A DNA stretch of 13,987 bases from Candidatus Sumerlaeales bacterium (GCA_038243585.1 JBBSQY010000067.1:1-13987), one strand, 5' to 3'. Counted from the stretch's first letter, positions 1 through 12,121 are shown. Numbers and translations are program-made. The notes: generated from the sequence alone by a model not told the origin.

Positions 1-1274
1 AAGTGGCGAGACTGACAGTAGTAGCACGAGCCCGGGAAATCGGCTTCATTTATAATTTAGCTGAAGTATTTTCCCAGACAAATGATCCAAACCCAATCAA
101 TAACGATGACATTGCTTATGTGAGTATTACGGCGCCGGCTCCACAGTACGACCTGGCCATCGCCATGCAAGCGTCGCCAGCTGCTGTTCAGGTGGGCGGG
201 ACTCTGGTTTACACCATCGGAGTCACTAACCTCGGACCGGACGACGCCACCGACATCACCCTCACCGACCTGCTTCCCGCGGAACTGGAAGTCCAGTCCG
301 TGGATGCTTCAGGCCCCTGGACAACGCAACTGGACGGTAACAGTCTGACGGCATTCCTGCAAGGGCTTGCAGCGGATCAGTCGGCGACGGTCACCATCAC
401 CACTGTCGTCCGTGCTGGCGCCGTCGGCGAAATCAGAAACACGGCACGCGTCTCAAGCCCGTTGTCAGAGGCGACAACCGTCAACAACTCAGCATCCGCA
501 GTAACCCCCATCGCCATCGTGCCAACCCCCGGCGCTGATCTGATGATTATCAAGTCAGCCAATCCGGATCCCGCAGTTGTCAATCAGCCGCTGACTTACA
601 CAGTCAAGGCAATCAACCTGGGACCAAACCGCAGCACGCTGACCTCGCTGGTGGACGTACTTCCTGATCATGTAACCGTTGTGTCTGTCGCGTCGGATCG
701 TGGAGATGCCATCATAGCAGACCGGGCCGTATCCGTCTCCGGTGTCGCTCTTGAGGTCGGTGAATCTATTACGCTTACGATTACCGTGACCCCTCTTGCA
801 CCCGGCGTACTGGTTAATCGTGCGGGCGTGCTATCCGAGGTGGTTGATCCGGATATGCTTAACAACACGGTAGAACTCAGCACCGTGGTGGGCGTAATGT
901 CCGACTGCGCGGATCTGACTGCGCAGATGACAAAGGCGCGGGCCATCTGTAAATACAACAAGAAGAAAGCGGAGTGGAAGTTCAGCGTTCAATCCAAAAT
1001 AGCCGTAAGCAATATCGGTACGGAGTGCGCCCCTGCGACAGTCGTGCAACTTTATCTCTCGGACGACAGAATCCTGGACTCGTCGGACGATTTCCTGTCC
1101 GTCAAAGCCCTGAAGCCGCTATGCCCGGGCAAGAAACCGAAAAAAGTCAACATGAAGGTAAAGTTGCAACCCAACTTGGATCCTCGCGGTCGCTATCTTA
1201 TCGCTGTTGTTGACGGTGACGGAATAGTGCTTGAATGCAACGAATTGAACAATACCGCATCCGGACCGAACTAA
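1..1274 (+). CDS. DUF11 (Ig-like) repeat surface/secreted protein with C-terminal CARDB-like domain; 5'-truncated by the window edge
   Basis: Two complete DUF11-type repeats (DLAIAMQASPAAVQVGGTLVYTIGVTNLGPDDATDITLTDLLP; ADLMIIKSANPDPAVVNQPLTYTVKAINLGP...VDPDMLNN) and the tail of an earlier one (DPNPINN). The C-terminus VSNIG..A....VQLYLSDD...YLIAVVDGDGIVLECNELNN is CARDB-like. The frame is open at the window start and stops at TAA 1272-1274. Confidence 0.8.
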   Translation, partial: VARLTVVARAREIGFIYNLAEVFSQTNDPNPINNDDIAYVSITAPAPQYDLAIAMQASPAAVQVGGTLVYTIGVTNLGPDDATDITLTDLLPAELEVQSVDASGPWTTQLDGNSLTAFLQGLAADQSATVTITTVVRAGAVGEIRNTARVSSPLSEATTVNNSASAVTPIAIVPTPGADLMIIKSANPDPAVVNQPLTYTVKAINLGPNRSTLTSLVDVLPDHVTVVSVASDRGDAIIADRAVSVSGVALEVGESITLTITVTPLAPGVLVNRAGVLSEVVDPDMLNNTVELSTVVGVMSDCADLTAQMTKARAICKYNKKKAEWKFSVQSKIAVSNIGTECAPATVVQLYLSDDRILDSSDDFLSVKALKPLCPGKKPKKVNMKVKLQPNLDPRGRYLIAVVDGDGIVLECNELNNTASGPN

Positions 1275-1288
1275 GAGAATCAAACAAC

Positions 1289-1321
1289 CGGCGGGCGTCT
1301 GGAACAGCCGGACGCCCGCCG
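1289..1321 (+). terminator. GC-rich stem-loop after the DUF11 gene (terminator, attenuator or mRNA-stabilising hairpin)
   Basis: CGGCGGGCGTCTGG-aacag-CCGGACGCCCGCCG forms a 14-bp stem with one G-U pair. There is no strong U-tract, so read-through is plausible. Confidence 0.5.
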
Positions 1322-1352
1322 ATGAATTTCACTAAAAAGGAACAACCAGATA

Positions 1353-1526
1353 ATGACAATCGATAGTGATCCCAACACTCGCTACGACAAGACGAAAGTC
1401 GCTCCAATAGGGGAGACCCCGTACACGGCTCCTGCAATAGAGCAATTTATTAACGCGGAAGAAATTGAACGGGAAGTCCATTACGCCGGCGGCCTGACCT
1501 GCCCAACCTGCCAAAGACTACCTTGA
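1353..1526 (+). CDS. 57-aa small protein, RiPP-precursor-like (YxxPxI leader motif, C-terminal CxxC); absent from the supplied ORF track
   Basis: Manual translation gives MTIDSDPNTRYDKTKVAPIGETPYTAPAIEQFINAEEIEREVHYAGGLTCPTCQRLP*. SD-like AAGGA at 1337-1341 precedes ATG 1353, and a hairpin plus T7 follows. Confidence 0.7.
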   Translation: MTIDSDPNTRYDKTKVAPIGETPYTAPAIEQFINAEEIEREVHYAGGLTCPTCQRLP

Positions 1527-1559
1527 CAGAGCCGCCATCCCTCATGGGCTGAGTGCGGA

Positions 1560-1596
1560 CTGCTCACGAAATGCCCCTTCGTTTGCAGCTTTTTTT
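1560..1596 (+). terminator. Putative intrinsic terminator after the small ORF
   Basis: CTGC-tc-ACGAA-atgcccc-TTCGT-tt-GCAG interrupted stem followed by TTTTTTT (1590-1596). Confidence 0.45.
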
Positions 1597-1719
1597 ACCA
1601 TTCGCCGTTGTCAGACTTATAAATAGAGGAAATTCGTTACGCCCATAACCGCGTGCCTCAATCTGCTGTCATATGATTTAGAATCAACATCATGAACTCA
1701 TCCGCGGATAAACCTTCTC

Positions 1720-2355
1720 ATGTTCCGACAGTCTTTCCGGTCGCTTAAACGCGGTTTTACCCTGATCGAGCTGCTCATTGTCGTAGCCATCATTGCCATT
1801 CTTGCCGGCATAGCAGTTGTTAATTTCCTGGAAGCCCAGACCCGGGCAAAGGTGGCCAGGGCGAAGTCCGATCTTCGCACCATAGCCACCGGCCTGGAGT
1901 TCTACAGGACGGATTACCCCGCCTATCCGGCCTATCATTATGCGCAGAACGACACGGCAGAGAACGGCTGGAGTTTCCATGTTGGCGGCGACATGAGTAA
2001 TATATTTGTATCGCCACCCTTCCTGGGAAACAACCCCCTTACAACTCCGGTCGCATATTTAAACCAGCCGCCCCGAGACGTCTTTGGCAAGCTCGCGAAC
2101 ATCGATTCGCCAGAGACAGCGGACTACTGGTATGTGAACTGGGACTATGCGATCACCAAAGTTACCGGCGGCTTTCAAGGGGTCTTCAACGATTTGCGCG
2201 CGGAACATGGATCCTGGCGAATTCACTCAAGCGGCCCGGATATGAAAGGCCCGGATACTATCGTGGGCGAGGGCCAGGCCAGCTACGACGCCACCAACGG
2301 AACAATCAGCCGTGGCGACGTCCTGTTTACTCAGAAGCGGCAGATGAGCCTGTAA
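1720..2355 (+). CDS. Prepilin-type N-terminal cleavage/methylation protein (GspG-like pseudopilin / type IV pilin-like)
   Basis: Class III signal KRG|FTLIELLIVVAIIAILAGIA with E5, then NFLEAQTRAKVARAKSDLRTIATGLE. LTTPVAYL...DVF and S.GPD motifs resemble GspG-like C-terminal domains. Confidence 0.9.
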   Translation: MFRQSFRSLKRGFTLIELLIVVAIIAILAGIAVVNFLEAQTRAKVARAKSDLRTIATGLEFYRTDYPAYPAYHYAQNDTAENGWSFHVGGDMSNIFVSPPFLGNNPLTTPVAYLNQPPRDVFGKLANIDSPETADYWYVNWDYAITKVTGGFQGVFNDLRAEHGSWRIHSSGPDMKGPDTIVGEGQASYDATNGTISRGDVLFTQKRQMSL

Positions 2356-2397
2356 GACCGGGGGATTCCACCAAACGCACCCTTTCGGGCCCATCGG

Positions 2398-3288
2398 TTA
2401 ATGCGTGTGCCCGTCGCCCTCCGTATGCGTATGAGTGCCCTCGGCTGATGTCGTGGCGCTGTCAGATGCTGTCGGCGTGGTGACTTCCGCACCCATAGGC
2501 AGCGAATAGGTGCTTGCGGGATCCTCAGGCTCTACGTTTCTAAGGCCGAACAGGCTGCTTTGCAGGTTGTTTCTGCCTTCCGTTTCATCCACGGTGGCTC
2601 CGCCGCCGCCGCGCACGAGCTGAAACTGGTAAATCCTGGGCGTACCAGACTCCACCAGTACATTCAGTCGCTCTTCAAACCCATAGCCCGGCTTGGATAC
2701 CTTGATGTCCCGGGTGCTGAACGTGATCCCGTTAAGGTTCTCAGGCATGGGTTTACCGTCAGGCATGGATACGGGCAATTTGAAATAGCCACGCTCATCC
2801 GTTGTCGTTTTCACATCCTGCTTCAAAAGTTCAACTGCCGCGCCGGCCACGGGCTTTCCAACGGTTTCGTCCGTTACATATCCGACAATCAGGGTGCCGT
2901 CCGCTGGCATTCCTTCCCCAAGTTTCTCCGGTCGCAGTTCCTCCGGATCCTCCGCGGGATCAAGCATTATCACATTTATGGGAGCTTGATCAAGCGCGGC
3001 CGTCTGCCGAGAGTCCAGGTCGTCATAGCCGTTCGCCTTAACCAGCACCTGGTGATCGCCGGGCGAGACAGGAACGCTCATTCGGCCGGCCTCGTCAATG
3101 GCGTTAAAAATCATTTTATTGTCAATCAGGATTGCGTCCGGGCGAACTACCGTGCCGCGGGCGCTGTCGCGAAATGTGAAGTGCATCACAGCCATCTGGG
3201 TGGCGGTCGTTTGTGCCGCGGCCATCGAGACACCGGCCATCATAGCCGCACATCCAATAACAATTTTAACACTTTCGCTAATCTTCAT
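2398..3288 (-). CDS. Exported protein with carboxypeptidase-regulatory-like (beta-sandwich) domains and a His-rich tail
   Basis: Signal peptide (VIGCAAMMAGVSMAAA-Q). IVGYVTDETVGKPVAGAAVEL...TTTDERGYFKL...IKVSKPGY is the CarboxypepD_reg pattern. It ends THTHTEGDGHTH. The start is ATG 3288, or GTG 3297 as in the track. Confidence 0.7.
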   Translation of the reverse strand: MKISESVKIVIGCAAMMAGVSMAAAQTTATQMAVMHFTFRDSARGTVVRPDAILIDNKMIFNAIDEAGRMSVPVSPGDHQVLVKANGYDDLDSRQTAALDQAPINVIMLDPAEDPEELRPEKLGEGMPADGTLIVGYVTDETVGKPVAGAAVELLKQDVKTTTDERGYFKLPVSMPDGKPMPENLNGITFSTRDIKVSKPGYGFEERLNVLVESGTPRIYQFQLVRGGGGATVDETEGRNNLQSSLFGLRNVEPEDPASTYSLPMGAEVTTPTASDSATTSAEGTHTHTEGDGHTH

Positions 3289-3314
3289 GATCCGCACCTG
3301 TTTATATAATGGCG

Positions 3315-4079
3315 TTACTGAAGCTCCCGTTTCCAGATCCGGACATCGGCGACCGACGGTGCCGCAACGCCGCTGGCCGACAAATGCAGCCGGTAGCGCA
3401 GTGACGGACCGGAAACTGTTGCAGAACTTATGGAATCCAGCGACTCCAAATCGGCGTTGGCAAGAGATGCTTGCACGGGAGCAACAACACGGTGCCCGTC
3501 CGGTTTACGATATTTTTCCATAACAACCCAGGGTGACCACTGGACGCCGTCCTCGCTCAACGACAGCTCCAGATCCACGCCTGCGCCCTCTTCCAGAGCT
3601 GCAGATTTATCGGCAGGACCCGCCAGCGCAGGACTTCGCAGCGAGATGGGCGGCGAAGCGAGCATTCCAGACCGGGGGGCCGTGCTGCCGGCTTCGCCGG
3701 TCAGGGTTAGCACGCCATCAATCAAATGGATCCCATCGGCCCGGTAGCCAGCGGGTATGGTCGTCCAATTGTCGAATTTGTCCACAATATAACCGGACAA
3801 CTGCGGCAAAACGGTGGGAGCCTCATCGGGAAAATTATGGACCCCGGCGTCGCGCGGGCGCGCGGTTGGGGTTTTATTATCTCTGGCGTCTCGGCGAGAG
3901 GGAAACTTACCGGTGGCGAGGCGATCAGTGCGCACGTCAGCCTGCCCGATAGGTTCGTCATCGGCCTCAGGCGGGGGATTGGGGCGATCCGGTTGACGCA
4001 GAAACAGCGCCCCACCCACCACACCGATAGTGAGCAGCACGGCAAAGCCAAGGGCCGGCTTACCGGAGCGTGACATCAT
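3315..4079 (-). CDS. Membrane-anchored hypothetical protein with a C-terminal beta-rich domain
   Basis: N-terminal TM segment (LGFAVLLTIGVVGGALFL), a Pro/charged linker, then LELSLSEDGVQWSPW...LRYRLHL. It overlaps the upstream gene by 20 nt, consistent with an operon. Confidence 0.65.
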   Translation of the reverse strand: MMSRSGKPALGFAVLLTIGVVGGALFLRQPDRPNPPPEADDEPIGQADVRTDRLATGKFPSRRDARDNKTPTARPRDAGVHNFPDEAPTVLPQLSGYIVDKFDNWTTIPAGYRADGIHLIDGVLTLTGEAGSTAPRSGMLASPPISLRSPALAGPADKSAALEEGAGVDLELSLSEDGVQWSPWVVMEKYRKPDGHRVVAPVQASLANADLESLDSISSATVSGPSLRYRLHLSASGVAAPSVADVRIWKRELQ

Positions 4080-4812
4080 ACGTCCATTCGCTGGTTCGAT
4101 GGCTGCCGGGGGCGGCTCGGTCGTCTGTTTCCACGATTTCCATGGAGAAGGTTTCGCTCGTGCTCCGGTCCATTTTGATCTGCATCCGCCTGCGTTCTCC
4201 GGGCGTAACCACGACGTTCTTCATGCGGACCGATTGGTAACCTTCAGCCTCAACCTCCAGGGTGACAGCCGGGCGTGCCGCAGCACCAGGCACTCCGGTG
4301 ATTATTTCGAAAGAATACAGGCCCATATCGTCCGTCCTGGTTGATAGCTGCGTATCAGGCAGAGTAACCAGCACATCCTTCATCAGCACACCGGTGTCGG
4401 CGTCGGAAACGTTGCCTTCCAATACGGCCGCATCGGCGGCCACCGGTTCCACCTCCAGCGGCTCGGTGGGATCCAGTTCAATTTCCATGATAGGCGTTTC
4501 GTCGCCCTGCACCGCGGCAGATACTTCGATAGACCCATAGCCGTCCGCTTCCACTTTGATGGAATGGGAGCCGTCAGGCAACGACAAAGCAATCAGGCTG
4601 CCCGCCTCCACCTCAAACGAAACCGCCTGTTCATCCACTGAAATAGAGGCCGGTGCCACGCCCCCGCCGGTGGATGAGTCCAGCACTTTCAGGTACAGGG
4701 TGCTGGACACGGCGGTTGTTAGCGCCGAAGTTTCTTGAGCCGCAAGCGGGACAGCAAGAGCAACCGCCAGCGCGACGACAACTGAGCATTTCCAAAAAAA
4801 GCCCGCTGTCAT
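4060..4812 (-). CDS. Exported protein with PEGA / carboxypeptidase-regulatory-like domains; paralog-like to 2398..3288
   Basis: Signal peptide VVVALAVALAVPLAA-Q. Motifs LPDGSHSIKVEADGY and LEGNVSDADTGVLMKDVLVTL...TRTDDMGLYSF...VEAEGY. TAATG stop/start overlap with the upstream gene at 4810-4814. Confidence 0.7.
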   Translation of the reverse strand: MTAGFFWKCSVVVALAVALAVPLAAQETSALTTAVSSTLYLKVLDSSTGGGVAPASISVDEQAVSFEVEAGSLIALSLPDGSHSIKVEADGYGSIEVSAAVQGDETPIMEIELDPTEPLEVEPVAADAAVLEGNVSDADTGVLMKDVLVTLPDTQLSTRTDDMGLYSFEIITGVPGAAARPAVTLEVEAEGYQSVRMKNVVVTPGERRRMQIKMDRSTSETFSMEIVETDDRAAPGSHRTSEWTYDVTLR

Positions 4813-5198
4813 TATTCTCCGGAAATCACCAGGAGTTCCGCCTGCAGCTCTTTGCGCCGGAGCTGAAGCTCTCTCGCCTGGCGCGAAGCCGTATAGTATT
4901 CGTCACAATTCTTGTGACGATTGAAGCCTCGCATCATCCATAAAAATGTCGACACCAAGGTCACGGCGACCATAAAGATCGTAAGATACCAGGCATAGCG
5001 GGCAGTCTTTACGTGAAAGATATAGGCATCCGGAATTCTATACCCAAACTCTGCCCAGCCGAAAATAAGGGCCGTCAACACCCACTTGCCCAAAGGGAAC
5101 TGTCGAGAGTCATACTGTGGGAGTGCCGCCGCAGCGGTGAGCCGCGTGATCTGCTCATCGAGACTGGCAATTTCTTGTAACAGTTGTTCTTTTCTCAT
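4812..5198 (-). CDS. Small two-TM membrane protein with coiled-coil ends
   Basis: The likely start is ATG 5198 (MRKEQLLQEIASLDEQI), preferred over the track's 5237 start. Two hydrophobic segments; translationally coupled to the next gene. Confidence 0.65.
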   Translation of the reverse strand: MRKEQLLQEIASLDEQITRLTAAAALPQYDSRQFPLGKWVLTALIFGWAEFGYRIPDAYIFHVKTARYAWYLTIFMVAVTLVSTFLWMMRGFNRHKNCDEYYTASRQARELQLRRKELQAELLVISGE

Positions 5199-5334
5199 AA
5201 GAAACAAATTTCCTATCGGAGGAAGATAGAAAATCAAGAACTTGTTTATAAGTTAAAAAACAAACATTGCTTCGGGAGAGAACCTTGCGACCGATGCTTA
5301 AGCCACGTCGGTTCTTGCCAGGATAACTAGTGAT

Positions 5335-6195
5335 TTAGTCGGCGGCAAATACCTGTTTGTAAGGTGAAATGATTCTTTCCTGGATCCATGCCAACAGGCC
5401 ATCGCGAAACTTCGGGTCCTCAAATGTGGCATTTTTACTGATTTGATCGTAGAGGAATTTGTTTACGCGATACTGTCGTTTGCGGTCGCGGAGCATGGCG
5501 TCCGTGGCTTCGGGCGCGGTTTCCAGTTCATGCTTCCACTCCACCGCCGCTTTTTCCAGTTCCGCGGTAGTCAGGGCGTCGTCCGGGCTGATGGCTTTTT
5601 CCAGAGCCACGCGCCGCGCTTCCCGTTCCCAGCTGTTTCGCGACCGCGCCAGTGCCGTTTCATGATCATCGGGAAACATCTTCTGGAATTCCTGAAACCG
5701 TTGCTCATCCTGTCCGTAGGTTATAACCAATGCCCGAAGGGCGCGCTCGGGGATTTCCATTTGCGTGGCGCTGGTCGAGACATCACGCCACAGCTCATCA
5801 AAGCTGTATTCCGAATTCTCTGCGCGGTTTTTTCGAAAGAGTTCGATGACCTGTCGTTGAAACTTAAGGCGGGGAAGCACCGTAAACGCAAGCTGTTCAC
5901 CCATATTCGACTTTTCGAAATCCTGCTGCTGACGCTCCATGGCGTCTGGATCCGGCTCCAGACTGCGGCGATCCGCTTCATCTGAGAGCCAGAGGCTCTT
6001 TAGCAGGGAAAAACAAACCCTGTATCGACACTCTTCCACCTGTGTGGCACTAAGGGTCTCGGTGGCGCAGCCGTTGTCGAGCGCTTCTGTATCGAGAGTT
6101 ACGCCGTCAAGGGTAACCACCGGCGCGGCATGGACGGCAGCACCGGCCAGCGTTATTGCAAACATCACGGCCAGCATTGCAGTGCGGCGTTTCAT
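5335..6195 (-). CDS. Secreted helical hypothetical protein
   Basis: Classic Sec signal MKRRTAMLAVMFAITLAGAAVHA-A and a 286-aa charged helical body. No family recognised. Confidence 0.7.
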   Translation of the reverse strand: MKRRTAMLAVMFAITLAGAAVHAAPVVTLDGVTLDTEALDNGCATETLSATQVEECRYRVCFSLLKSLWLSDEADRRSLEPDPDAMERQQQDFEKSNMGEQLAFTVLPRLKFQRQVIELFRKNRAENSEYSFDELWRDVSTSATQMEIPERALRALVITYGQDEQRFQEFQKMFPDDHETALARSRNSWEREARRVALEKAISPDDALTTAELEKAAVEWKHELETAPEATDAMLRDRKRQYRVNKFLYDQISKNATFEDPKFRDGLLAWIQERIISPYKQVFAAD

Positions 6196-6432
6196 GCGGT
6201 TTTTCCCTCAATCTTAAAGTTAAAGATATTAAACCCAGTGGGCGCACGAAAATTTCTTATCCGGCGTCGGTGACATGGGTTGATCATAATGCATATGCAT
6301 TTAAGCGGGTCCTGTGCCCGGCTATTAGCGTCCATTTTGAACATAACGCCTTAAATGTCCGTTTTTGGCCGCCGCCACCCCCGCCGTAAAATTTTCTGTG
6401 CCCATACGCACCCATACGTGCCCGTGCGGGAA

Positions 6433-6461
6433 TTGTGCCGCTGAAACTTCCGCCCTATAAC
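6433..6461 (+). promoter_or_regulatory. Candidate sigma70-type promoter of the head cassette
   Basis: TTGTGC (6433-6438), a 17-nt spacer and TATAAC (6456-6461). SD-like AAGGTGGT at 6480-6487 precedes ATG 6496. Confidence 0.5.
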
Positions 6462-6495
6462 CATCAGCATACTTTACGAAAGGTGGTTAAAACTT

Positions 6496-8010
6496 ATGGC
6501 GGGAATTCGTCCGGTAACACGCGAAATCTCCGGCAGGTGTCATTCCGGCGGTGTCACCCCCGGCTGGTATCATTCCATGCTGACAACGGACTGGTCCTGG
6601 GCCGGGACGCCGGGCGGGCTTTATGGCTTGTTTCAGGAGATGGAAGACAAAGATGCCCACCTGTTCGCCACGCTTCAGACCCGGAAAAACGCCTTGCTGG
6701 GGTGCCCATGGAAGGTGATCGCGGGGGACGATTCAACTGACGCTCGCGCGGCGGCGGCGCTGGTGGAACGGAATCTATTTACCCTGCCGAGCCTGAACAT
6801 GGCTCTGTTTCATCTGCTGGACGCGGTGGCAAAGGGCTTCGCCGTCGCAGAAATCATCTGGGAGGTCGATCGGGAAAGTGGTCATGTTTACGCGGCGGAT
6901 ATACGCGGTCGCAACCAGGTCGATTTCGCGTTCGACTCCGGGCAGCGTCTGTTCATGCTGAATGATACACCCGCGACAGACGGCTCAGCCAGCCGTCCGC
7001 ACCTTCGGGAAAATATGCGCGACCTGTTGCCGCGTCCCGGCGAGACGATGGTATGGGCGCAAGGAGCACAGGCGATGCCGGAACGGAAGTTTCTCCATTT
7101 CGCATTCCAGGGAAACACCTGTTCACCCTACGGCGCGGCCCTTTGCATCAAAGCTTATCAGTATTACTGGCTCAAGAAAAACACGCTCCAGCATTGGGCG
7201 CTTTTCAACGAGAAATTCGGTAGCCCCACTGCCGTTGCTCGCTATGCCGCCACCACTTCAGAGGACGACCTTCGCCGTCTGGAAGAAACCATAGCCTCGC
7301 TTCCGCAAGACACCGGGGTGCTGTTGCCAGAAGGCGTGGGACTGGAATTCCTGGAAGCGCGGCGGGCGTCCGGGTCGAACACTTATCGGGAAATGGCAGA
7401 TTGGTGCAACGACGAAATTTCGAAAATCGTCCTTGGCCAGACGCTTACCACCAGCGAAGGGCGACGTTCCGGCAGCCTCGCGCTGGGCCAGGTCCACGAA
7501 ACGGTGCGGCGTGACTACCTGGCCAGCGACGCGGCGATTGTCGGGCAGGTGCTCTCGTCCCAACTCGCGCGGTGGATCACCGACTTCAACTTCGGAACCG
7601 ATGTGCCGGCACCGAGAGTCGTGTTTGATGTTGCTCCGCCGGAGCAGTTCGAAAGCGAGCTCGCGGTAGACCGGGAGCTGATCAAGATGGGGGTGCCGAT
7701 CCCGGCCGCTTATTTTTATGATCGTTACCGCCGACCGGCACCCCGCGACGGCGAACGCACCCTGCGTTATGACGACGCCAATCTCTACCAGTATCATTTG
7801 CTCCATGGCGTGCTGACAATCAACGAGGTGCGGGCGACCTTGGGGCTGGCAGCAACGCCATGGGGAGACCAGCAAACGGGTCGCCGGGGCGGAGGCGAAT
7901 CCGCTGCCGTAGAGCAGGACATGGGCGGGCGCGGCGGAGGCCGGGACGGCGATAGAAAAGAAGGCGACGGCGATGCAGACGAGGCCACCGCAGATCGCCA
8001 GCTAGGGTAG
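6496..8010 (+). CDS. Phage portal protein, DUF935 / Mu gp29-like
   Basis: DUF935 motifs: LFQEMEDKDAHLFATLQTRKNALLG.PWKV, LLDAVAKGFAVAEIIW, W..FNEKFGSP..V.RY, EFLEA, WCNDEISKIVLGQTLT...GSLALGQVHETVR.D...SDA, L..WI..FNFG. Confidence 0.92.
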   Translation: MAGIRPVTREISGRCHSGGVTPGWYHSMLTTDWSWAGTPGGLYGLFQEMEDKDAHLFATLQTRKNALLGCPWKVIAGDDSTDARAAAALVERNLFTLPSLNMALFHLLDAVAKGFAVAEIIWEVDRESGHVYAADIRGRNQVDFAFDSGQRLFMLNDTPATDGSASRPHLRENMRDLLPRPGETMVWAQGAQAMPERKFLHFAFQGNTCSPYGAALCIKAYQYYWLKKNTLQHWALFNEKFGSPTAVARYAATTSEDDLRRLEETIASLPQDTGVLLPEGVGLEFLEARRASGSNTYREMADWCNDEISKIVLGQTLTTSEGRRSGSLALGQVHETVRRDYLASDAAIVGQVLSSQLARWITDFNFGTDVPAPRVVFDVAPPEQFESELAVDRELIKMGVPIPAAYFYDRYRRPAPRDGERTLRYDDANLYQYHLLHGVLTINEVRATLGLAATPWGDQQTGRRGGGESAAVEQDMGGRGGGRDGDRKEGDGDADEATADRQLG

Positions 8011-8031
8011 GAACGGCTCGCCGAGCCGTCC
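8007..8031 (+). repeat. GTAG-led REP-like hairpin overlapping the portal stop codon
   Basis: GTAG-GA-ACGGCTC-gcc-GAGCCGT-CC. The TAG of GTAG is the portal stop (8008-8010). Confidence 0.55.
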
Positions 8032-8074
8032 GAAACGAAACCCCACAATCAACGCAAAAAAGAAAGGAACAAAC

Positions 8075-8938
8075 ATGCAGGATGATAACGAAGTAGAAAT
8101 GGAAGTCTTTCGCACCGGAGACTACGGCGCGAAAGGGTCATACTCGCCAGCAGATTTGCAACGGATGGCGGATGATTACCGGCCCGATCTGCTGGAAGCA
8201 CCATTAACATTCGACCATGCCCAGACGGGGCCGGCCTATGGCTGGGTAAGCCGGTTACGCTGCGACGGAGATCGCCTGGTTGCGGCGCTCAAAGGCGTGC
8301 CGGAGGCCGTGCGAGAGGCCGTGAAAAGCGGGGCTTATAAGCGCCGCAGCGTGGAGCTGTTTCGCAAGCTGCCCCACACCGGCAGGCCATATCTCCGGGC
8401 GGTATCGCTACTCGGCGCGGCCACGCCCGAAGTGAAGGGGCTGCGCGATGTTTGCTTCGCCGCAAACAACGACGCGTTGCAGGTGGAGCTGGACACAAGC
8501 GCGGCGGAGGCCGAGGTTCCGCAGTTTTCTTTCGCGGCCATGCACGCCCAGTTGCTAGAGAGCCGGCTGGCGCTGATATTTTCAGAGCTGCGGGCAGATG
8601 GTTACTGCCTGGCAGATCGGGACGCACAGGCTATCCGCCGGATCGTGACCGGCCCCCGGAGCGAAGCATCAACGGCGCAGTTTGACGACAGCGTTGCCGG
8701 CGTGACCCTCGACTGGCTGTCCGGGTTTTTGCGTCAGACGCTACTGCGGGCGCCCCTTGGCGAAGCCGCGACCCCCGCCTCGAACGGCACTAGGATTCCG
8801 CGCTTTTCTGAGGGATCGCAACTGGTCGTCGGCCACACAGACCCACGATCCATCGCCCTGCACACGAACGCGCTGCAAATCCAGTCCCAGTCGCCAGGCA
8901 TGGCGTACCGCGATGCGCTCAGGCAGGCATCACGTTAG
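8075..8938 (+). CDS. Mu-like prohead protease with fused scaffold region
   Basis: EVFRTG...DL..MA..Y.P...EAPL.FDH....PAYGWV..L...G..L.A....V.......V..G.YK.RSVE...YLRAV.LLGA..PEVKGL, with putative catalytic H (FDH) and S (RRS). The tail D..S..LH..A...Q.....MAY.DAL is scaffold-like. SD AAAGGA lies upstream. Confidence 0.85.
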   Translation: MQDDNEVEMEVFRTGDYGAKGSYSPADLQRMADDYRPDLLEAPLTFDHAQTGPAYGWVSRLRCDGDRLVAALKGVPEAVREAVKSGAYKRRSVELFRKLPHTGRPYLRAVSLLGAATPEVKGLRDVCFAANNDALQVELDTSAAEAEVPQFSFAAMHAQLLESRLALIFSELRADGYCLADRDAQAIRRIVTGPRSEASTAQFDDSVAGVTLDWLSGFLRQTLLRAPLGEAATPASNGTRIPRFSEGSQLVVGHTDPRSIALHTNALQIQSQSPGMAYRDALRQASR

Positions 8939-8958
8939 GATAGGCATTCCTGCCCGTC
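8936..8958 (+). repeat. REP-like element, solo copy, overlapping the protease stop codon
   Basis: TAGGATAGGCATTCCTGCCCGTC matches 9432-9454 at 22/23 positions. Confidence 0.7.
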
Positions 8959-9038
8959 CGACAGCCCTCCTCAGCGATTCCAGCCCTGCCAAATTTAGCT
9001 CAAATAACACTAAACCGATCACGAAAGGATCAAACATA

Positions 9039-9428
9039 ATGGCCATCTACCTGATGGATAAGACGTATCGCATCACCAACTCCGGAGGTGTCGCATCCGC
9101 CCGGGTGGTTGTGGCGGGAGTAAGCTCAGGACACTGCGCGCTGCCCGCAGCCGCCAACGCGGGAAAGATTCTGGGCGTTACCGTAACGTCACAGCCAGAG
9201 CTTGGGCGCGGGGTCAGCGTGCGCAAGGCGGGCATAGTCGATGTGGTCGCTGCGGGGGCCATCTCCGCCGGGTCGCCGGTCAATATCGCCGACGCCACCG
9301 GCCGGGTGAAACTGGTTAACGAGAGTATCGGCACGAAAGTCCAATGCCTGGGTTTCGCCGAAACCAGCGCCAGTTCCGCAGGCGATGTGGTCGAAGTATT
9401 TATCTCCGTCCACGAGCGCACAATCTAA
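9039..9428 (+). CDS. Capsid cement/decoration protein (DUF2190-like), 129 aa
   Basis: True start inferred at ATG 9039 after SD AAAGGA (9024-9029). Gly/Ala/Val-rich ILGVT......G..VSVR..GIVDVVAAGAISAGSPV...ATGRV...LGFAETSASSAGDVVEV. It lies between protease and capsid, the usual position. Confidence 0.8.
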   Translation: MAIYLMDKTYRITNSGGVASARVVVAGVSSGHCALPAAANAGKILGVTVTSQPELGRGVSVRKAGIVDVVAAGAISAGSPVNIADATGRVKLVNESIGTKVQCLGFAETSASSAGDVVEVFISVHERTI

Positions 9429-9430
9429 AA

Positions 9431-9539
9431 GTAGGATGGGCATTCCTGCCCGTCGCAGTGGACCATGTTTAAATAAAGCGCCGACCCTGTCGCCCGACGG
9501 ATCGGCGAGCGATGGAGGACGGGCAGCAATGCCCATCCT
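9431..9539. repeat. REPIN-like inverted REP pair between the cement and capsid genes
   Basis: GTAGGATGGGCATTCCTGCCCGTC (9431-9454) and inverted GACGGGCAGCAATGCCCATCCT (9518-9539) are complementary at 21/22 positions. A small internal hairpin lies at 9490-9508. Confidence 0.75.
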
Positions 9540-9593
9540 CCAAATCGCGCTTCAGCGGGCCAACATAATCTTAAAAAAAAGGAAAACAAAAAC

Positions 9594-10532
9594 ATGCCTG
9601 AAGTACAGCAGGTTCATATCGACGCAGCGCTCACCAATCTGAGCGTTGCCTATAGAAACAACGACTACATAGCGGAGCTGATTGCCCCGCGGGTTGCCGT
9701 GCGAAAGCAAAGCGACCGCTACTATGTCTATGACGCGGAACGCGAATCAATCCGCGCCACCGACGACCTTCGCGCCCCCGGAAGCCTGGCCGGCGAAGTC
9801 GATTACACCCTCAGCACAGACAGCTACTATTGCAGCGATCACGCCCTGGCCAGCGCTGTCCCCGATGAAGAAAGGGAGAACGCAGACCCGATTATCCAGC
9901 CGGACATCGACCGGACGGAATTCCTGACGGAGCGGATCCTTCTCAACCAGGAGCTTGCGCTTGAAGAGCTCCTGCGCGGCAGTGCAGACATAGGCGAAAA
10001 GGTTCTGGGACCCGGCTCAGAATGGAACGAGGCGGGCAGCGATCCGGTGCTGGACGTGCAGGAGGCTCGCCTGGCGGTATTCTCCCAGTGTCAGCGCCGC
10101 GCCAATGTCATGGTGTTGCCCTATCACGTTTATGAGACCCTGCGCAATCACCCGGCGGTGATAGACCGTATCAAATACTCAACGCAGGGGGTCGTCACGC
10201 CAGACCTGCTGGCCCAGGTGTTCGATGTCGACCGCGTGCTGGTGCCACGGTGTTTTGTCAATAACGCCGCCAAGGGTCAGGCCGCGATCGTAGAGCCGCT
10301 GTGGCAATCCAACGCCTATCTGATGCATGTGGCAGAGCGCCCCGGCCTGAAACAGGTGACCCTCGCAGGGACTTTCGTGTGGAACGGGATGGCCGGAAGC
10401 ATAGACGGCCTGGTGGTGGAAAGATGGCGCGATCACGGACGCAAGGCAGACATGATTCGCGTAGAGAAATACTACGACATCAAGCTGATCGCCCCCGGCG
10501 CAGGATTCCGGATCAACAACACCATCGCGTAA
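9594..10532 (+). CDS. Major capsid protein (HK97 fold; lambda gpE / Mu-like-prophage type)
   Basis: HIDAALTNLSVAYRNNDYIAELIAPRVAV.KQS..YY.Y, W....SDPV.D, N.MVL...V...LRNHP.VIDRIKY...GVVT.DLLAQVFDVD.V.V, ...GAGF.I. It follows portal, protease and cement genes. SD AAAGGA lies upstream. Confidence 0.88.
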   Translation: MPEVQQVHIDAALTNLSVAYRNNDYIAELIAPRVAVRKQSDRYYVYDAERESIRATDDLRAPGSLAGEVDYTLSTDSYYCSDHALASAVPDEERENADPIIQPDIDRTEFLTERILLNQELALEELLRGSADIGEKVLGPGSEWNEAGSDPVLDVQEARLAVFSQCQRRANVMVLPYHVYETLRNHPAVIDRIKYSTQGVVTPDLLAQVFDVDRVLVPRCFVNNAAKGQAAIVEPLWQSNAYLMHVAERPGLKQVTLAGTFVWNGMAGSIDGLVVERWRDHGRKADMIRVEKYYDIKLIAPGAGFRINNTIA

Positions 10533-10543
10533 CAAAACCCGAA

Positions 10544-10578
10544 TCATGCACGCGCACGAGATCAGTGCGCGTGCATGA
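10544..10578. terminator. Perfect 14-bp stem-loop after the capsid gene
   Basis: TCATGCACGCGCAC-gagatca-GTGCGCGTGCATGA. There is no + strand U-tract; a T-rich tail occurs on the minus strand. Confidence 0.6.
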
Positions 10579-10625
10579 AATCGGGGCAAAAAAGAGAAGA
10601 CTCTATATAAAGAAAGGTTTAAAAT

Positions 10626-11009
10626 ATGGATCGCAAAGAAGTCGTTTACCAGGTCAACGGCGTTGCCGTGGCCTACTGGCGTCGCATGATCGCCGGCAAG
10701 ACATTCTGGATTGTCGTGGCCTTTGTTCTCACGGCGGCAGACCGCTGGAACAAGGGAGAAATATCCGGTGCCGATTTTTTTCAGATGGTACAGATCGGCG
10801 TAATAGGCATACTGATACGGACCGCCATGACCCGATCAGAACTCGCCGCCAACGCGGCAAACCCAAAAGTGGGAAGCGTCGGAGCAACCGAGAAAAAAGC
10901 AACCCTTCCGCCGGAACTGACAGGCATAGCGACCTGCCTGATAGCCGCCGGCGCACTGCTAACACTGGCAGCCTGCGCCCCCGGAACCGCAGGCATCAAC
11001 CTGGGCTAA
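10626..11009 (+). CDS. Small membrane protein, holin-like, with a C-terminal lipobox-like motif
   Basis: SD AAAGG upstream. Hydrophobic segments GKTFWIVVAFVLTAA, QMVQIGVIGILIRTAM and IATCLIAAGALLTLAAC. The holin call rests on size, topology and context only. Confidence 0.55.
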   Translation: MDRKEVVYQVNGVAVAYWRRMIAGKTFWIVVAFVLTAADRWNKGEISGADFFQMVQIGVIGILIRTAMTRSELAANAANPKVGSVGATEKKATLPPELTGIATCLIAAGALLTLAACAPGTAGINLG

Positions 11010-11016
11010 CCCCAAG

Positions 11017-11055
11017 CCGCATGATCCGCCCGAACGCCGACGGCGGATCATGCGG
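11017..11055. terminator. Perfect 14-bp stem-loop closing the head cassette
   Basis: CCGCATGATCCGCC, an 11-nt loop, then GGCGGATCATGCGG, starting 8 nt after the stop codon. Confidence 0.6.
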
Positions 11056-11255
11056 ACAGGCCACTTTTGATAGCCTCGATTTCTATGATGGCCTACATTG
11101 CATAGCACCGATTTCCCTAATAACATTTTATTTTTTTCACGGCCAAAGGTTTATTGAGCGTACCAGCCTGGCCCAAAGGCCCGTACCTCTTAAAAACAAT
11201 CGTCCCAGGCCTGAAAGCTCGTTGAGCATACAAGCTTGAGCCATAGCCCCCAGGT

Positions 11256-11378
11256 ATCGAATCATAAAGGGGCAACCGGCCCACACATCGTTTCATATTG
11301 GCCCACACATCGTTTCATACTAGGGAACCGGCCCTTGCATCGTATCATGCTGGGTTCAGCGGACAGAAATCGTGTCAT
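11256..11378 (+). repeat. Five direct ATCGNNTCAT motifs, including an exact 20-bp tandem duplication
   Basis: Motifs start at 11256, 11287, 11309, 11339 and 11369. GGCCCACACATCGTTTCATA occurs at 11278-11297 and 11300-11319. Confidence 0.75.
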
Positions 11379-11406
11379 ACGCAAAGTGCTAAAAGACATC
11401 CCCATT

Positions 11407-12121
11407 GCCGGCTTTAGCCGGCCAGTCTTTGCCCCCGCATTTATGCGGGGGGCTTTGATGGGATAAAGACCTTAGCCCGCTTTAGCGGGGCTTTCCCACC
11501 GCTTCAGCATCGTCACCGACACGATCCTGCTCGGCCTGGATATATCCATCATCATAGATGCCGCTGATTTCCAAAGTATCATTGATTTTCCCAGCACCTA
11601 CAAACCCGTGATGCTCCTTTTGCTTTTGTATGTACTCAACAATGGAGCTGGTTTGCCTTTTAGAAAAGCTGACCGCCCCGTATCCGCGTTGCCATAGCAG
11701 GGCTTTTCTACCGCAAACTTTGTTAATTTCAAATGAACTGGCGCCTTTAATTTTGCCTACAAAATCGCTGATCGTCACAAATGGTTCCATCTGAAATGCC
11801 AGATGGATGTGGGTTGGCGTGCCATTTAGCGCAAGCAGGTAAATGCCTTTCACCTGCCGACAGTGTTCGGCCATAAAAGCGAAAAGCGCCGGCTCTATAG
11901 AATCGCTAATCATGGGCTTATCATACTGGCAATGCCAGTTCAGATGTATAAATATTTCGCTGAAGACATGGCTTGAGCCAAATTTCATATTGTGTGCCAT
12001 TCTGTGGTGGGAGTTAAATGCTAAAGCGGTCGAGAAGCCCCGCTGAAGCGGGCTTGTCAATTAATTTGCAGCCAGCCCCCCGCATAAATGCGGGGGCAAA
12101 GACTGGCCGGCTAAAGCCGGC
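11407..12121 (-). mobile_element. RAYT / IS200-IS605-superfamily element: Y1 transposase gene bracketed by 104-bp composite inverted repeats of REP-like hairpins
   Basis: 11407-11454 is the exact reverse complement of 12074-12121 (48 bp). A 19-nt unrelated spacer follows on each side, then imperfect inverted blocks 11474-11510 and 12018-12054. No tnpB and no target-site duplication are seen. Confidence 0.85.
11482..12000 (-). CDS. tnpA: Y1 HUH transposase (IS200/IS605 TnpA-like; REP-associated tyrosine transposase)
   Basis: HLNW, NGTPTHIHL (HUH), VGKIKGASS, LWQRGYGAVSFS and YIQKQKEHH (catalytic Tyr). The start is ATG 12000 or 11988. The gene is visibly AT-richer than its neighbours. Confidence 0.9.
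   Translation of the reverse strand: MAHNMKFGSSHVFSEIFIHLNWHCQYDKPMISDSIEPALFAFMAEHCRQVKGIYLLALNGTPTHIHLAFQMEPFVTISDFVGKIKGASSFEINKVCGRKALLWQRGYGAVSFSKRQTSSIVEYIQKQKEHHGFVGAGKINDTLEISGIYDDGYIQAEQDRVGDDAEAVGKPR

Follow-up and report, generated by a model that had tools for sequence, protein, structure and literature searches.

Can a bacterium own a phage head without the phage? This question is raised by a 13,987-bp stretch of DNA, here called the window, which makes up the entire contig C67 of G000, a metagenome-assembled genome (MAG; 3.43 Mb, 99 contigs, 89.7% complete, 3.6% contamination) of a Candidatus Sumerlaeales bacterium. The Sumerlaeota, formerly BRC1, are an uncultured phylum, common in soils and sediments. 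At positions 6496–11009 of the window, five plus-strand genes follow one another, intact and uninterrupted, encoding a Mu-type portal protein, a head maturation protease, a capsid cement protein, a major capsid protein with the HK97 fold and a small membrane protein. An initial annotation of the window had described such a co-oriented set and proposed that the host keeps it as a head-assembly operon, possibly one part of a dispersed gene transfer agent (GTA). The description is borne out, and the proposal is supported by the distribution of the genes, by the selection acting on them and by an unlinked terminase.

We argue that this cassette serves as the head module of a GTA-like particle system, dispersed in the genome and passed on vertically, that has become secondarily tail-less in this lineage, a reading to which we give a probability of roughly 60%. 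That it belongs to a domesticated, selected and vertically inherited system of phage origin we hold with high confidence. That this system would have the job of packaging DNA for transfer between cells we rate at slightly under even odds. As the MAG is 89.7% complete, genes absent from G000 are reported as not found.

Distribution and vertical inheritance

The capsid gene is present in 32 of 41 related genomes (G000 counted), in one copy in nearly all of them, with identities of 67–72% within the genus, 52–63% within the family and 47–59% within the class. In a profile search, 62 of the phylum's 75 species genomes, from 48 of 59 genera, yield a match; among high-quality genomes the figure is 35 of 43, and the two genomes outside the class Sumerlaeia yield none. 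The relatives carry the same cassette and not a full prophage, which the initial annotation had named as speaking against a host-kept operon. Gene order is conserved as well: by tblastn, the four head genes (portal to capsid) are colinear in 13 of 15 fetched loci, and a 14th has a longer form of the cement gene that is detected by blastp. One locus of family f8 lacks a portal gene beside the protease gene, and in a second f8 genome the portal gene lies on another contig.

The capsid gene follows its hosts. In a tree of 31 genomes (G016, whose gene is in two pieces, was omitted), the 12 families of the GTDB require 11 label changes, which is the minimum and was reached by none of 200 shuffles; genera are recovered too. 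The tree of the large terminase (33 rows, with the fragments of G016 and G035 and the partial paralogues of G000 omitted) also requires the minimum of 11 changes, again as low as in 0 of 200 shuffles, and repeats groupings of the capsid tree. A host-congruent phylogeny, one of the checks suggested by the initial annotation, is therefore found for both genes.

The ratio of nonsynonymous to synonymous substitution rates (dN/dS) was computed by the method of Nei and Gojobori (NG86) for 12 hand-picked close pairs, with saturated pairs giving no value. It is 0.02–0.21 for the capsid gene (0.021–0.079 where dS is below 0.6), 0.06–0.28 for cement, 0.12–0.32 for portal, 0.12–0.33 for protease and 0.09–0.30 for terminase. 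Ratios near 1, which the initial annotation had listed as evidence against its proposal, were not observed (overall range 0.02–0.33). Strong constraint on the head genes persists in tail-less lineages, an example being the capsid gene with dN/dS of 0.03–0.08 within genus g2 and 0.13–0.15 within the source genus.

Base composition links the cassette to its unlinked terminase. In G000, the GC content at third codon positions (GC3) is 0.69–0.72 for the four head genes and 0.745 for the terminase, against a genome mean of 0.577 ± 0.067 over 1,994 open reading frames (ORFs) of at least 250 aa, placing these genes in the 95th to 99.6th percentile. Among relatives, GC3 exceeds that of flanking ORFs for the cassette mean in 15 of 15 and for the terminase in 13 of 14, a comparison that uses raw, unfiltered flank ORFs from genomes related to one another. 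The shared high GC3 of head genes and terminase points to a common selective or expression regime.

The flanking genes of these loci are ordinary housekeeping genes that vary between families. Only 40 of 861 locus pairs have any flank family in common, and 8 of the 10 best flank-sharing Sumerlaeota pairs have at least 84% capsid identity. With flank sharing mostly confined to close relatives, the cassette behaves as a chromosomal gene does where gene order decays fast, and not as a re-inserting element. Loci were also seen outside the phylum, in Poribacteria, Chitinophagaceae and Acidimicrobiaceae; the queries used there did not sort prophage from domesticated copies.

An unlinked terminase gene family

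Pfam and PHROG scans agree with the initial annotation that the window holds no integrase, MuA, terminase or tail gene, and neither library identifies a replication gene among the window proteins. A full-length large terminase of 592 aa (phrog_38, 3.9e-76) is encoded on another contig of G000, at C36:18925–20703, where it stands alone among a TerB-domain gene, an ABC-F ATPase gene and sugar-nucleotide genes. The initial annotation had advised a search for orphan terminase, connector and tail loci: terminase genes turned up, on C36 and further contigs, while no connector or tail locus was found in G000.

A terminase orthologue is present in 34 of the 41 relatives. Terminase and capsid genes occur together in 30 genomes and are both absent from five, with two genomes having the capsid gene only and four the terminase only; no test statistic is attached to these counts, as related genomes are not independent. 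Among 25 sequences there is no variation at the Walker A Gly and Lys, at the Walker B Asp-Asp-x-Glu or at six acidic residues in the nuclease half. The separation from the head genes also holds in closed genomes: in G007 the terminase lies 131 kb away from them, and in G021 head genes, adaptor, hub and terminase occupy four separate sites. In the family f10 genomes G021, G027 and G031, the terminase is encoded as separate ATPase and nuclease ORFs in different frames. As the arrangement is consistent across the family, it could be genuine splitting or a programmed shift instead of decay.

ORF clustering of 32 terminase loci found no conserved small gene beside the terminase, with the caveat that small terminases diverge fast and may lie elsewhere. 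A 118-aa cluster considered as a small terminase was rejected, as it consists of overlapping-frame ORFs of the large terminase. In known GTAs, a small terminase without a DNA-binding domain is a described feature (available part of PMC11841831).

The terminase has multiplied in the source genome. Terminase fragments sit at six contig ends of G000, as 3′ parts on C27, C65, C4 and C51 and as 5′ parts on C29 and C34, and the contigs break inside the terminase copies. The four 3′ fragments represent recent copies, being 94–96% identical to one another at the protein level and 68–77% identical to the C36 copy. Each continues into different unique DNA; the repeat unit comprises the ORF and ~220 bp upstream. 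Together with the C36 copy, the four 3′ fragments therefore represent at least five terminase genes in G000, versus one portal gene. Same-genus G002 has at least three copies, and G008 has two.

Neck and tail parts in the class and their loss

ORFs of 66 related loci were clustered; many of these loci end at contig ends, so the counts are lower bounds. In most Sumerlaeia, the genes behind the capsid gene encode a head-tail adaptor, the proteins F297 and F1036, a fibre-like protein and F112. The adaptor, of the Mu Gp36 family (phrog_195, down to 5e-31), is found in at least 46 loci, F297 (200–360 aa) in at least 29 and F1036 (~1,040 aa) in at least 26. The fibre-like protein is F768 in at least seven loci or F482 in at least four, and F112, a small membrane-anchored protein, occurs in at least 12. 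F297 is predicted to adopt a tail-tube/distal-tail-protein fold: its AlphaFold model (predicted local distance difference test score, pLDDT, 93) matches the phage T1 tail tube (2e-5), the JBD30 baseplate (8e-4) and the neck of the GTA of Rhodobacter capsulatus (RcGTA). F1036, the putative hub, has a weak PDB profile match to a domain of tip attachment protein J (8rk3, E 0.39).

The likely source of these parts can be seen in a related genome. At ~96–133 kb of contig C26 of G013 (loci L159 and L160), genes for MuA, Gam, terminase, portal, protease, cement and capsid protein are contiguous and continue with adaptor, tape measure, F297 (tube fold), F1036 (hub) and F768 (fibre). This is a genuine prophage of a Mu-like transposable siphophage and likely represents the ancestor type of the domesticated set; the system itself descends from a Mu-like transposable siphophage. 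Of 41 genomes, 3 yielded the tape measure of this prophage and 2 its putative tube protein, which is assigned by cluster position and has no tail annotation; both counts come from insensitive searches with single distant protein queries. Because both are rare, the class-wide set looks like a head with a stub tail, lacking tube and tape measure. The ancestral Sumerlaeia system was not head-only; the head-only state is derived in the source genus and some sister genera.

In this lineage, profiles of the adaptor, F297, F1036, F768 and F482 found nothing among six-frame ORFs of G000, nor did the Pfam families Gp36, sheath and Baseplate_J, and profile scans for neck remnants at the G000, G001 and G002 loci reached E 0.076 at best. 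When 33 proteins of the G013 prophage were compared with G000 by tblastn, only terminase, portal, protease and capsid protein matched. F1036 is present in 19 of the 41 relatives, with one weak match among the 12 genomes of family f1. The adaptor is present in 25 of the 41 relatives, but in only 4 of 12 in family f1; neither the three genomes of the source genus nor those of genus g2 yielded it, nor did the closed same-family genome G007, which likewise keeps head genes and terminase only.

A further protein family, F269, lies 3′ of the cassette in sister genera of family f1 (loci L042, L044, L047, L048 and L083). It is lipoprotein-like, ~260 aa long, with a conserved L-x-G-C box, and has no match in Pfam or PHROGs. 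In G000 it is encoded at C35:10767–11549, flanked by genes for an amino-acid kinase and a SIS-domain protein. F269 is not related to the tube-fold protein F297.

Genes and signals of the cassette

The portal protein (504 aa; 6496–8010, plus strand) matches Pfam Portal_Mu at 4.7e-92 and phrog_113 at 4e-93, is the sole Portal_Mu match in G000 and has 56 residues that are invariant across 17 orthologues. It is followed by the head maturation protease (287 aa; 8075–8938, plus strand), which matches phrog_976 at 2e-39 over residues 8–142. Among 29 orthologues, S92 is invariant and H48 at least 90% conserved. Its C-terminal half, which had no match in our searches, is probably a fused scaffold. The cement or decoration protein (129 aa; 9039–9428, plus strand) matches Phage_cement_2 at 2.7e-6 and phrog_673 at 2.4e-13, and a profile built from its orthologues scores it at 2.5e-53. 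A longer ORF (8757–9428) was rejected as the cement gene: the reading of start codons and the size of the orthologues (128–133 aa in 26 of 30 genomes) place the true start at 9039.

The major capsid protein (312 aa; 9594–10532, plus strand) belongs to the Mu-like gpT family, with a phrog_1005 match (3.9e-76) that spans residues 5–311, i.e. its full length, and a profile search leads to PDB 3bjq at 3e-30. Its structure model has an overall pLDDT of 57 and is confident in the core only, so the fold call rests on that core; the top fold matches are 3bjq and tailed-phage capsids, with encapsulins weaker, from rank 22 down. The small membrane protein (127 aa; 10626–11009, plus strand) has three hydrophobic segments and is restricted to the source genus, all three genomes of which keep it with a dN/dS of ~0.19 (two of three pairs, the third being saturated). 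Pfam, PHROGs, NCBIfam and PADLOC contain no family for it, and the ESM Atlas yields unnamed clusters alone (scores up to 0.83). We can only speculate that it is holin-like. It is not F112, the small cluster-end protein of other families (hhalign probability 0.6%).

A ribosome-binding site of the AAGG/AAAGGA type precedes every start codon of the cassette, in keeping with the Shine-Dalgarno sites read by the initial annotation. The same annotation had placed a promoter in front and a hairpin behind, of which the hairpin stands: a stem-loop at 11017–11055 (plus strand; −30.9 kcal/mol, z −5.7) lies behind the small membrane gene and marks the 3′ end of the cassette. The promoter is at chance level. 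The sequence TTGGCC-16-TAAAAT at 6365–6392 (plus strand), ~100 bp 5′ of the portal gene, agrees with a sigma-70-like promoter at 9 of 12 positions, and is listed as a mere candidate, since such sites are no commoner here than in shuffled sequence (3 found versus 2.0 ± 1.6). Right behind the capsid gene lies another, strong stem-loop (10538–10585, plus strand; −36.9 kcal/mol, z −10.1), as stable as none of 200 shuffles. Both hairpins lack a T-run, for which reason we only infer that the capsid-gene stem-loop acts as a terminator, an attenuator or an mRNA stabiliser.

Three intergenic gaps of the cassette contain elements resembling repetitive extragenic palindromes (REP-like elements). A palindromic element of family A (8010–8031) lies between portal and protease genes, one of family B (8938–8958) between protease and cement genes, and an inverted pair of family B elements (9434–9538) forms a long hairpin between cement and capsid genes (−58.6 kcal/mol, z −4.9). 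At up to two mismatches, family A has 46 matches on 26 contigs of G000 and family B 30 matches on 19. Since the three gaps hold the genome's own repeats, the cassette belongs to this genome. The unlinked C36 terminase, too, has a family A element behind its stop codon.

Assembly and flanks of the window

The initial annotation had also listed an assembly join at either border as evidence against its proposal. In an independent assembly of the one run, out of three, that carries the stretch (DNA), single contigs cover 1903–7717 and 9206–11435; since these bridge both cassette borders, neither border is an assembly join. The contig breaks of that assembly coincide with REP-like repeats inside the cassette, not with its borders. 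An apparent joint of 8032 to 9431 in the run's contigs, with only 24 bases on one side, is dismissed as a repeat artefact because it is flanked by two REP-like elements.

The flanks are non-phage, as had been claimed, with exported proteins (DUF11/CARDB, pilin-like and CarboxypepD_reg) on the 5′ side and a Y1 transposase and DUF2254 on the 3′ side. Positions 1–6195 encode, on both strands, a DUF11/CARDB repeat protein, a pilin-like N-methyl protein and two CarboxypepD_reg/PEGA proteins; three further genes of this exported-protein set have no family match. The earlier label of REP-associated tyrosine transposase (RAYT) for the Y1 gene (11482–12060, minus strand) is not established, since NCBIfam names it a transposase of the insertion sequence (IS) type IS200/IS605 (67 bits, cut-off 55). 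Just beyond the 3′ end of this gene, at 11270–11400, a ~20-bp repeat occurs in four direct copies, two of them exact and two degenerate, with two short GC-rich hairpins behind; these may be the end structures of that element. No att-like repeats were found at the cassette borders.

Elsewhere in G000, a second capsid-encoding region occupies ~99.4–110.2 kb of contig C2 (L158), with an integrase, a DUF3987 primase-like gene, a 497-aa gene without a named family and an HK97-type capsid gene (PF05065, 1.6e-11). It adjoins DivIC, FabZ, LpxC and BamA and looks like a capsid-encoding phage satellite.

Alternative explanations

Retained phage heads might serve ends other than gene transfer. One such function is defence, in which host-made heads and terminase would, on infection by a Mu-like siphophage, mis-package or soak up DNA of phage or host, or steal the tails of the invader, and thereby block productive infection. 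Such siphophages, whose head, adaptor and tail-tip genes are homologous, do infect the phylum (G013:C26). A set of head genes alone could work only together with a helper phage or against it, and an arms race could lie behind the multiplied terminase. We nevertheless consider a decoy or hijacker unlikely: none of 10 proteins matches the PADLOC defence library, identity to the resident phage type is low (~25–30%), G000 has no adaptor with which to accept foreign tails, and single-copy head genes that evolve slowly and in strict congruence with the host do not resemble fast-turnover defence islands. Dependence on a helper is also the premise of a mobile satellite of the capsid-forming island type, which would build its own small capsid and rely on the helper for tails and induction. 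The compact, head-only cassette and its differing neighbourhoods between families would suit such an element, whose mobility is hard to reconcile with a capsid tree at minimum changes over host families, one copy in nearly all relatives and flanks that are syntenic between close relatives. The borders, too, show no integrase, primase/replicase, regulator or att-like repeat, the terminase is at least 131 kb away in closed genomes, and the real satellite-type island on C2 looks quite different, all of which makes a satellite very improbable.

Equally improbable, in our view, is a portal-bearing protein nanocompartment, i.e. an encapsulin-like shell for enzymes or minerals that has lost DNA packaging. 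The initial annotation had offered this option, and the HK97 fold, the encapsulins among the weaker fold matches and a lineage without a tail are in its favour. The closest fold and profile matches, however, are tailed-phage capsids, and the shell gene has no conserved neighbour of cargo type. Portal, protease and a terminase that retains its ATPase and nuclease motifs are DNA-packaging parts that co-occur under selection, and because the intact terminase is co-retained, a nanocompartment is less likely than a DNA-packaging particle. Chance survival of an inert prophage remnant could account for a partial phage gene set adjoined by an IS200-type gene, and hardly for four genes that remain intact in at least 62 loci across phylum-level divergence, with dN/dS of 0.02–0.33 and a tree that follows host families. 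We find this explanation scarcely credible, in agreement with the initial remark that the locus is not typical of random prophage decay. Satellite, nanocompartment and inert remnant all conflict with features that were tested.

Several observations weigh against a GTA-like system as well. The capsid gene was not found in 13 of 75 phylum genomes, and the system is dispensable for that reason. Flank synteny is lost beyond about the genus level, whereas RcGTA loci, as far as the available part of PMC5721377 describes them, retain conserved flanks within orders. In G000 (89.7% complete), searches for an adaptor, a tube-fold protein, a hub, a fibre, a sheath, a baseplate and a tape measure came up empty, so the delivery device that defines known GTAs is missing there. 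Small terminase, endolysin and regulator were not identified, and a model of domesticated heads leaves the five or more terminase copies unexplained. Beyond the identity of the genes and the pattern of their evolution, all that is said of the system is inferred.

Proposed mechanism

With these reservations, a GTA-like particle can be sketched, its assembly steps being taken from the known roles of the protein families. Protease-scaffold and portal would nucleate a procapsid of the HK97-fold capsid protein, which the protease would then mature. The unlinked terminase would pump DNA in through the portal, and the cement protein would stabilise the filled shell. To judge from this gene set, bacteria of this lineage probably build their own virus-like DNA container. 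Its cargo is probably host DNA, because the search turned up no small terminase that would confer specificity for a sequence.

In most Sumerlaeia, adaptor, tube-fold protein, hub and fibre would add a stub tail without a tape measure, and because this stub tail is present in most families, the whole particle resembles a GTA. In the source genus, the product would be a tail-less, DNA-filled head, whose release the genus-specific small membrane protein perhaps helps. Here we tentatively raise a further option, which we think somewhat unlikely. In the source genus and some sister genera, the DNA-packaging head, kept whole under selection, would be a capsule owned by the host, tail-less and portal-bearing, that works without injection, the terminase having multiplied to at least five genes. 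In this option, lysis might free the capsids and recipients might take up the DNA by pilus or competence machinery; alternatively, the capsule might be an intracellular device for DNA storage or sequestration. The terminase paralogues might select different cargo.

Relation to known systems

To our knowledge, no more than a handful of GTA families have been recognised, and the origin and selective value of GTAs are still debated. The nearest known kind to the Sumerlaeota system is a GTA or viriform, the class in which the ICTV (the international committee for virus taxonomy) places the RcGTA-type agents of Alphaproteobacteria (PMC9953437, available part). We liken the cassette to the head-and-packaging module of a GTA and do not file it as one, because no delivery device was found in G000 and the features it shares with GTAs are evolutionary, read from genes. 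These features are structural genes that are host-fixed and co-inherited, and purifying selection without genes for integrase, replication or transposition.

RcGTA is encoded by 24 genes at five loci, according to the parts available of PMC5721377 and PMC11841831. Within what those sources cover, it and the Sumerlaeota set are alike in having phage-derived head and packaging genes in the chromosome, split over several loci, and in their host-congruent phylogeny at the family or order level, their selection and their deviating base composition. The last parallel is partial: the GC excess of RcGTA concerns codon positions 1 and 2 (PMC7360931, as far as available), whereas here GC3 and overall GC are raised. 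The two are unrelated in origin, the Sumerlaeota set having a Mu-type portal and a gpT-type capsid from a transposable siphophage. Unlike RcGTA, no tail tube or tape measure was found in the class-wide set, no neck or tail in the source genus and no small terminase.

Mu-like siphophages, such as the G013:C26 prophage and Pseudomonas phage JBD30 (baseplate PDB 8rk3), share with the cassette system the PHROG families of terminase (phrog_38), portal (113), protease (976), cement (673), capsid (1005) and adaptor (195). The tail-tip proteins F297 and F1036 match 8rk3 (Foldseek 8e-4 with chain D; weak profile matches at E 0.0032 with chain U and 0.39 with chain o). The cassette nevertheless differs from the prophage. 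The G013 phage has MuA, Gam, a terminase right 5′ of the portal, and a tape measure, arranged contiguously over 37 kb, all of which the cassette lacks, and protein identities between the two are only ~23–36%. The phage type also occurs sporadically, with its tape measure turning up in 3 of 41 genomes, against a near-universal cassette. Nor is the cassette itself a Mu-like prophage, as it has no MuA/MuB, no terminase directly 5′ of the portal, no gpF and no contiguous tail genes.

Phage satellites encode an integrase along with replication and regulatory functions, and they excise and move between hosts horizontally. Capsid-forming islands resemble the cassette in being a small chromosomal set with its own capsid and no full virion, but an integrase, a replication module, regulation, excision and horizontal spread were not seen for the cassette. 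Encapsulins are host-encoded shells of the HK97 fold that hold protein cargo and have no portal, protease or terminase. The cassette shares their HK97-fold, host-gene shell and differs by its conserved portal, protease and terminase and by the lack of a conserved cargo-type neighbour.

GTA-like packaging has been described in gut Oscillospiraceae and Ruminococcaceae by long-read sequencing of capsid-packaged DNA, which indicates, in the part of PMC12946183 available, that undescribed GTA-type systems exist outside the Alphaproteobacteria. That case concerns another phylum and another gene set, and packaging was measured there, whereas the Sumerlaeota system is known from genes. Our literature search, outside which most subscription journals lie, found nothing linking Sumerlaeota with GTAs or with a major capsid protein, and no account of this system in the wider GTA and Mu-like phage literature.

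Significance

If true, this reading would add an independently domesticated, phylum-wide system with a different ancestor, a Mu-like transposable phage. The Sumerlaeota would then offer a natural reduction series, from a head with a stub tail in most families, through a head with an adaptor in some, to the head only in the source genus. With such a series, an old question becomes testable, namely which parts a host-owned particle needs and whether DNA-filled capsids are of any use when they lack a tail. The scattered genes, the codon bias shared by unlinked parts and the terminase family would provide handles for finding the regulators of the system and the rules by which it chooses its cargo.

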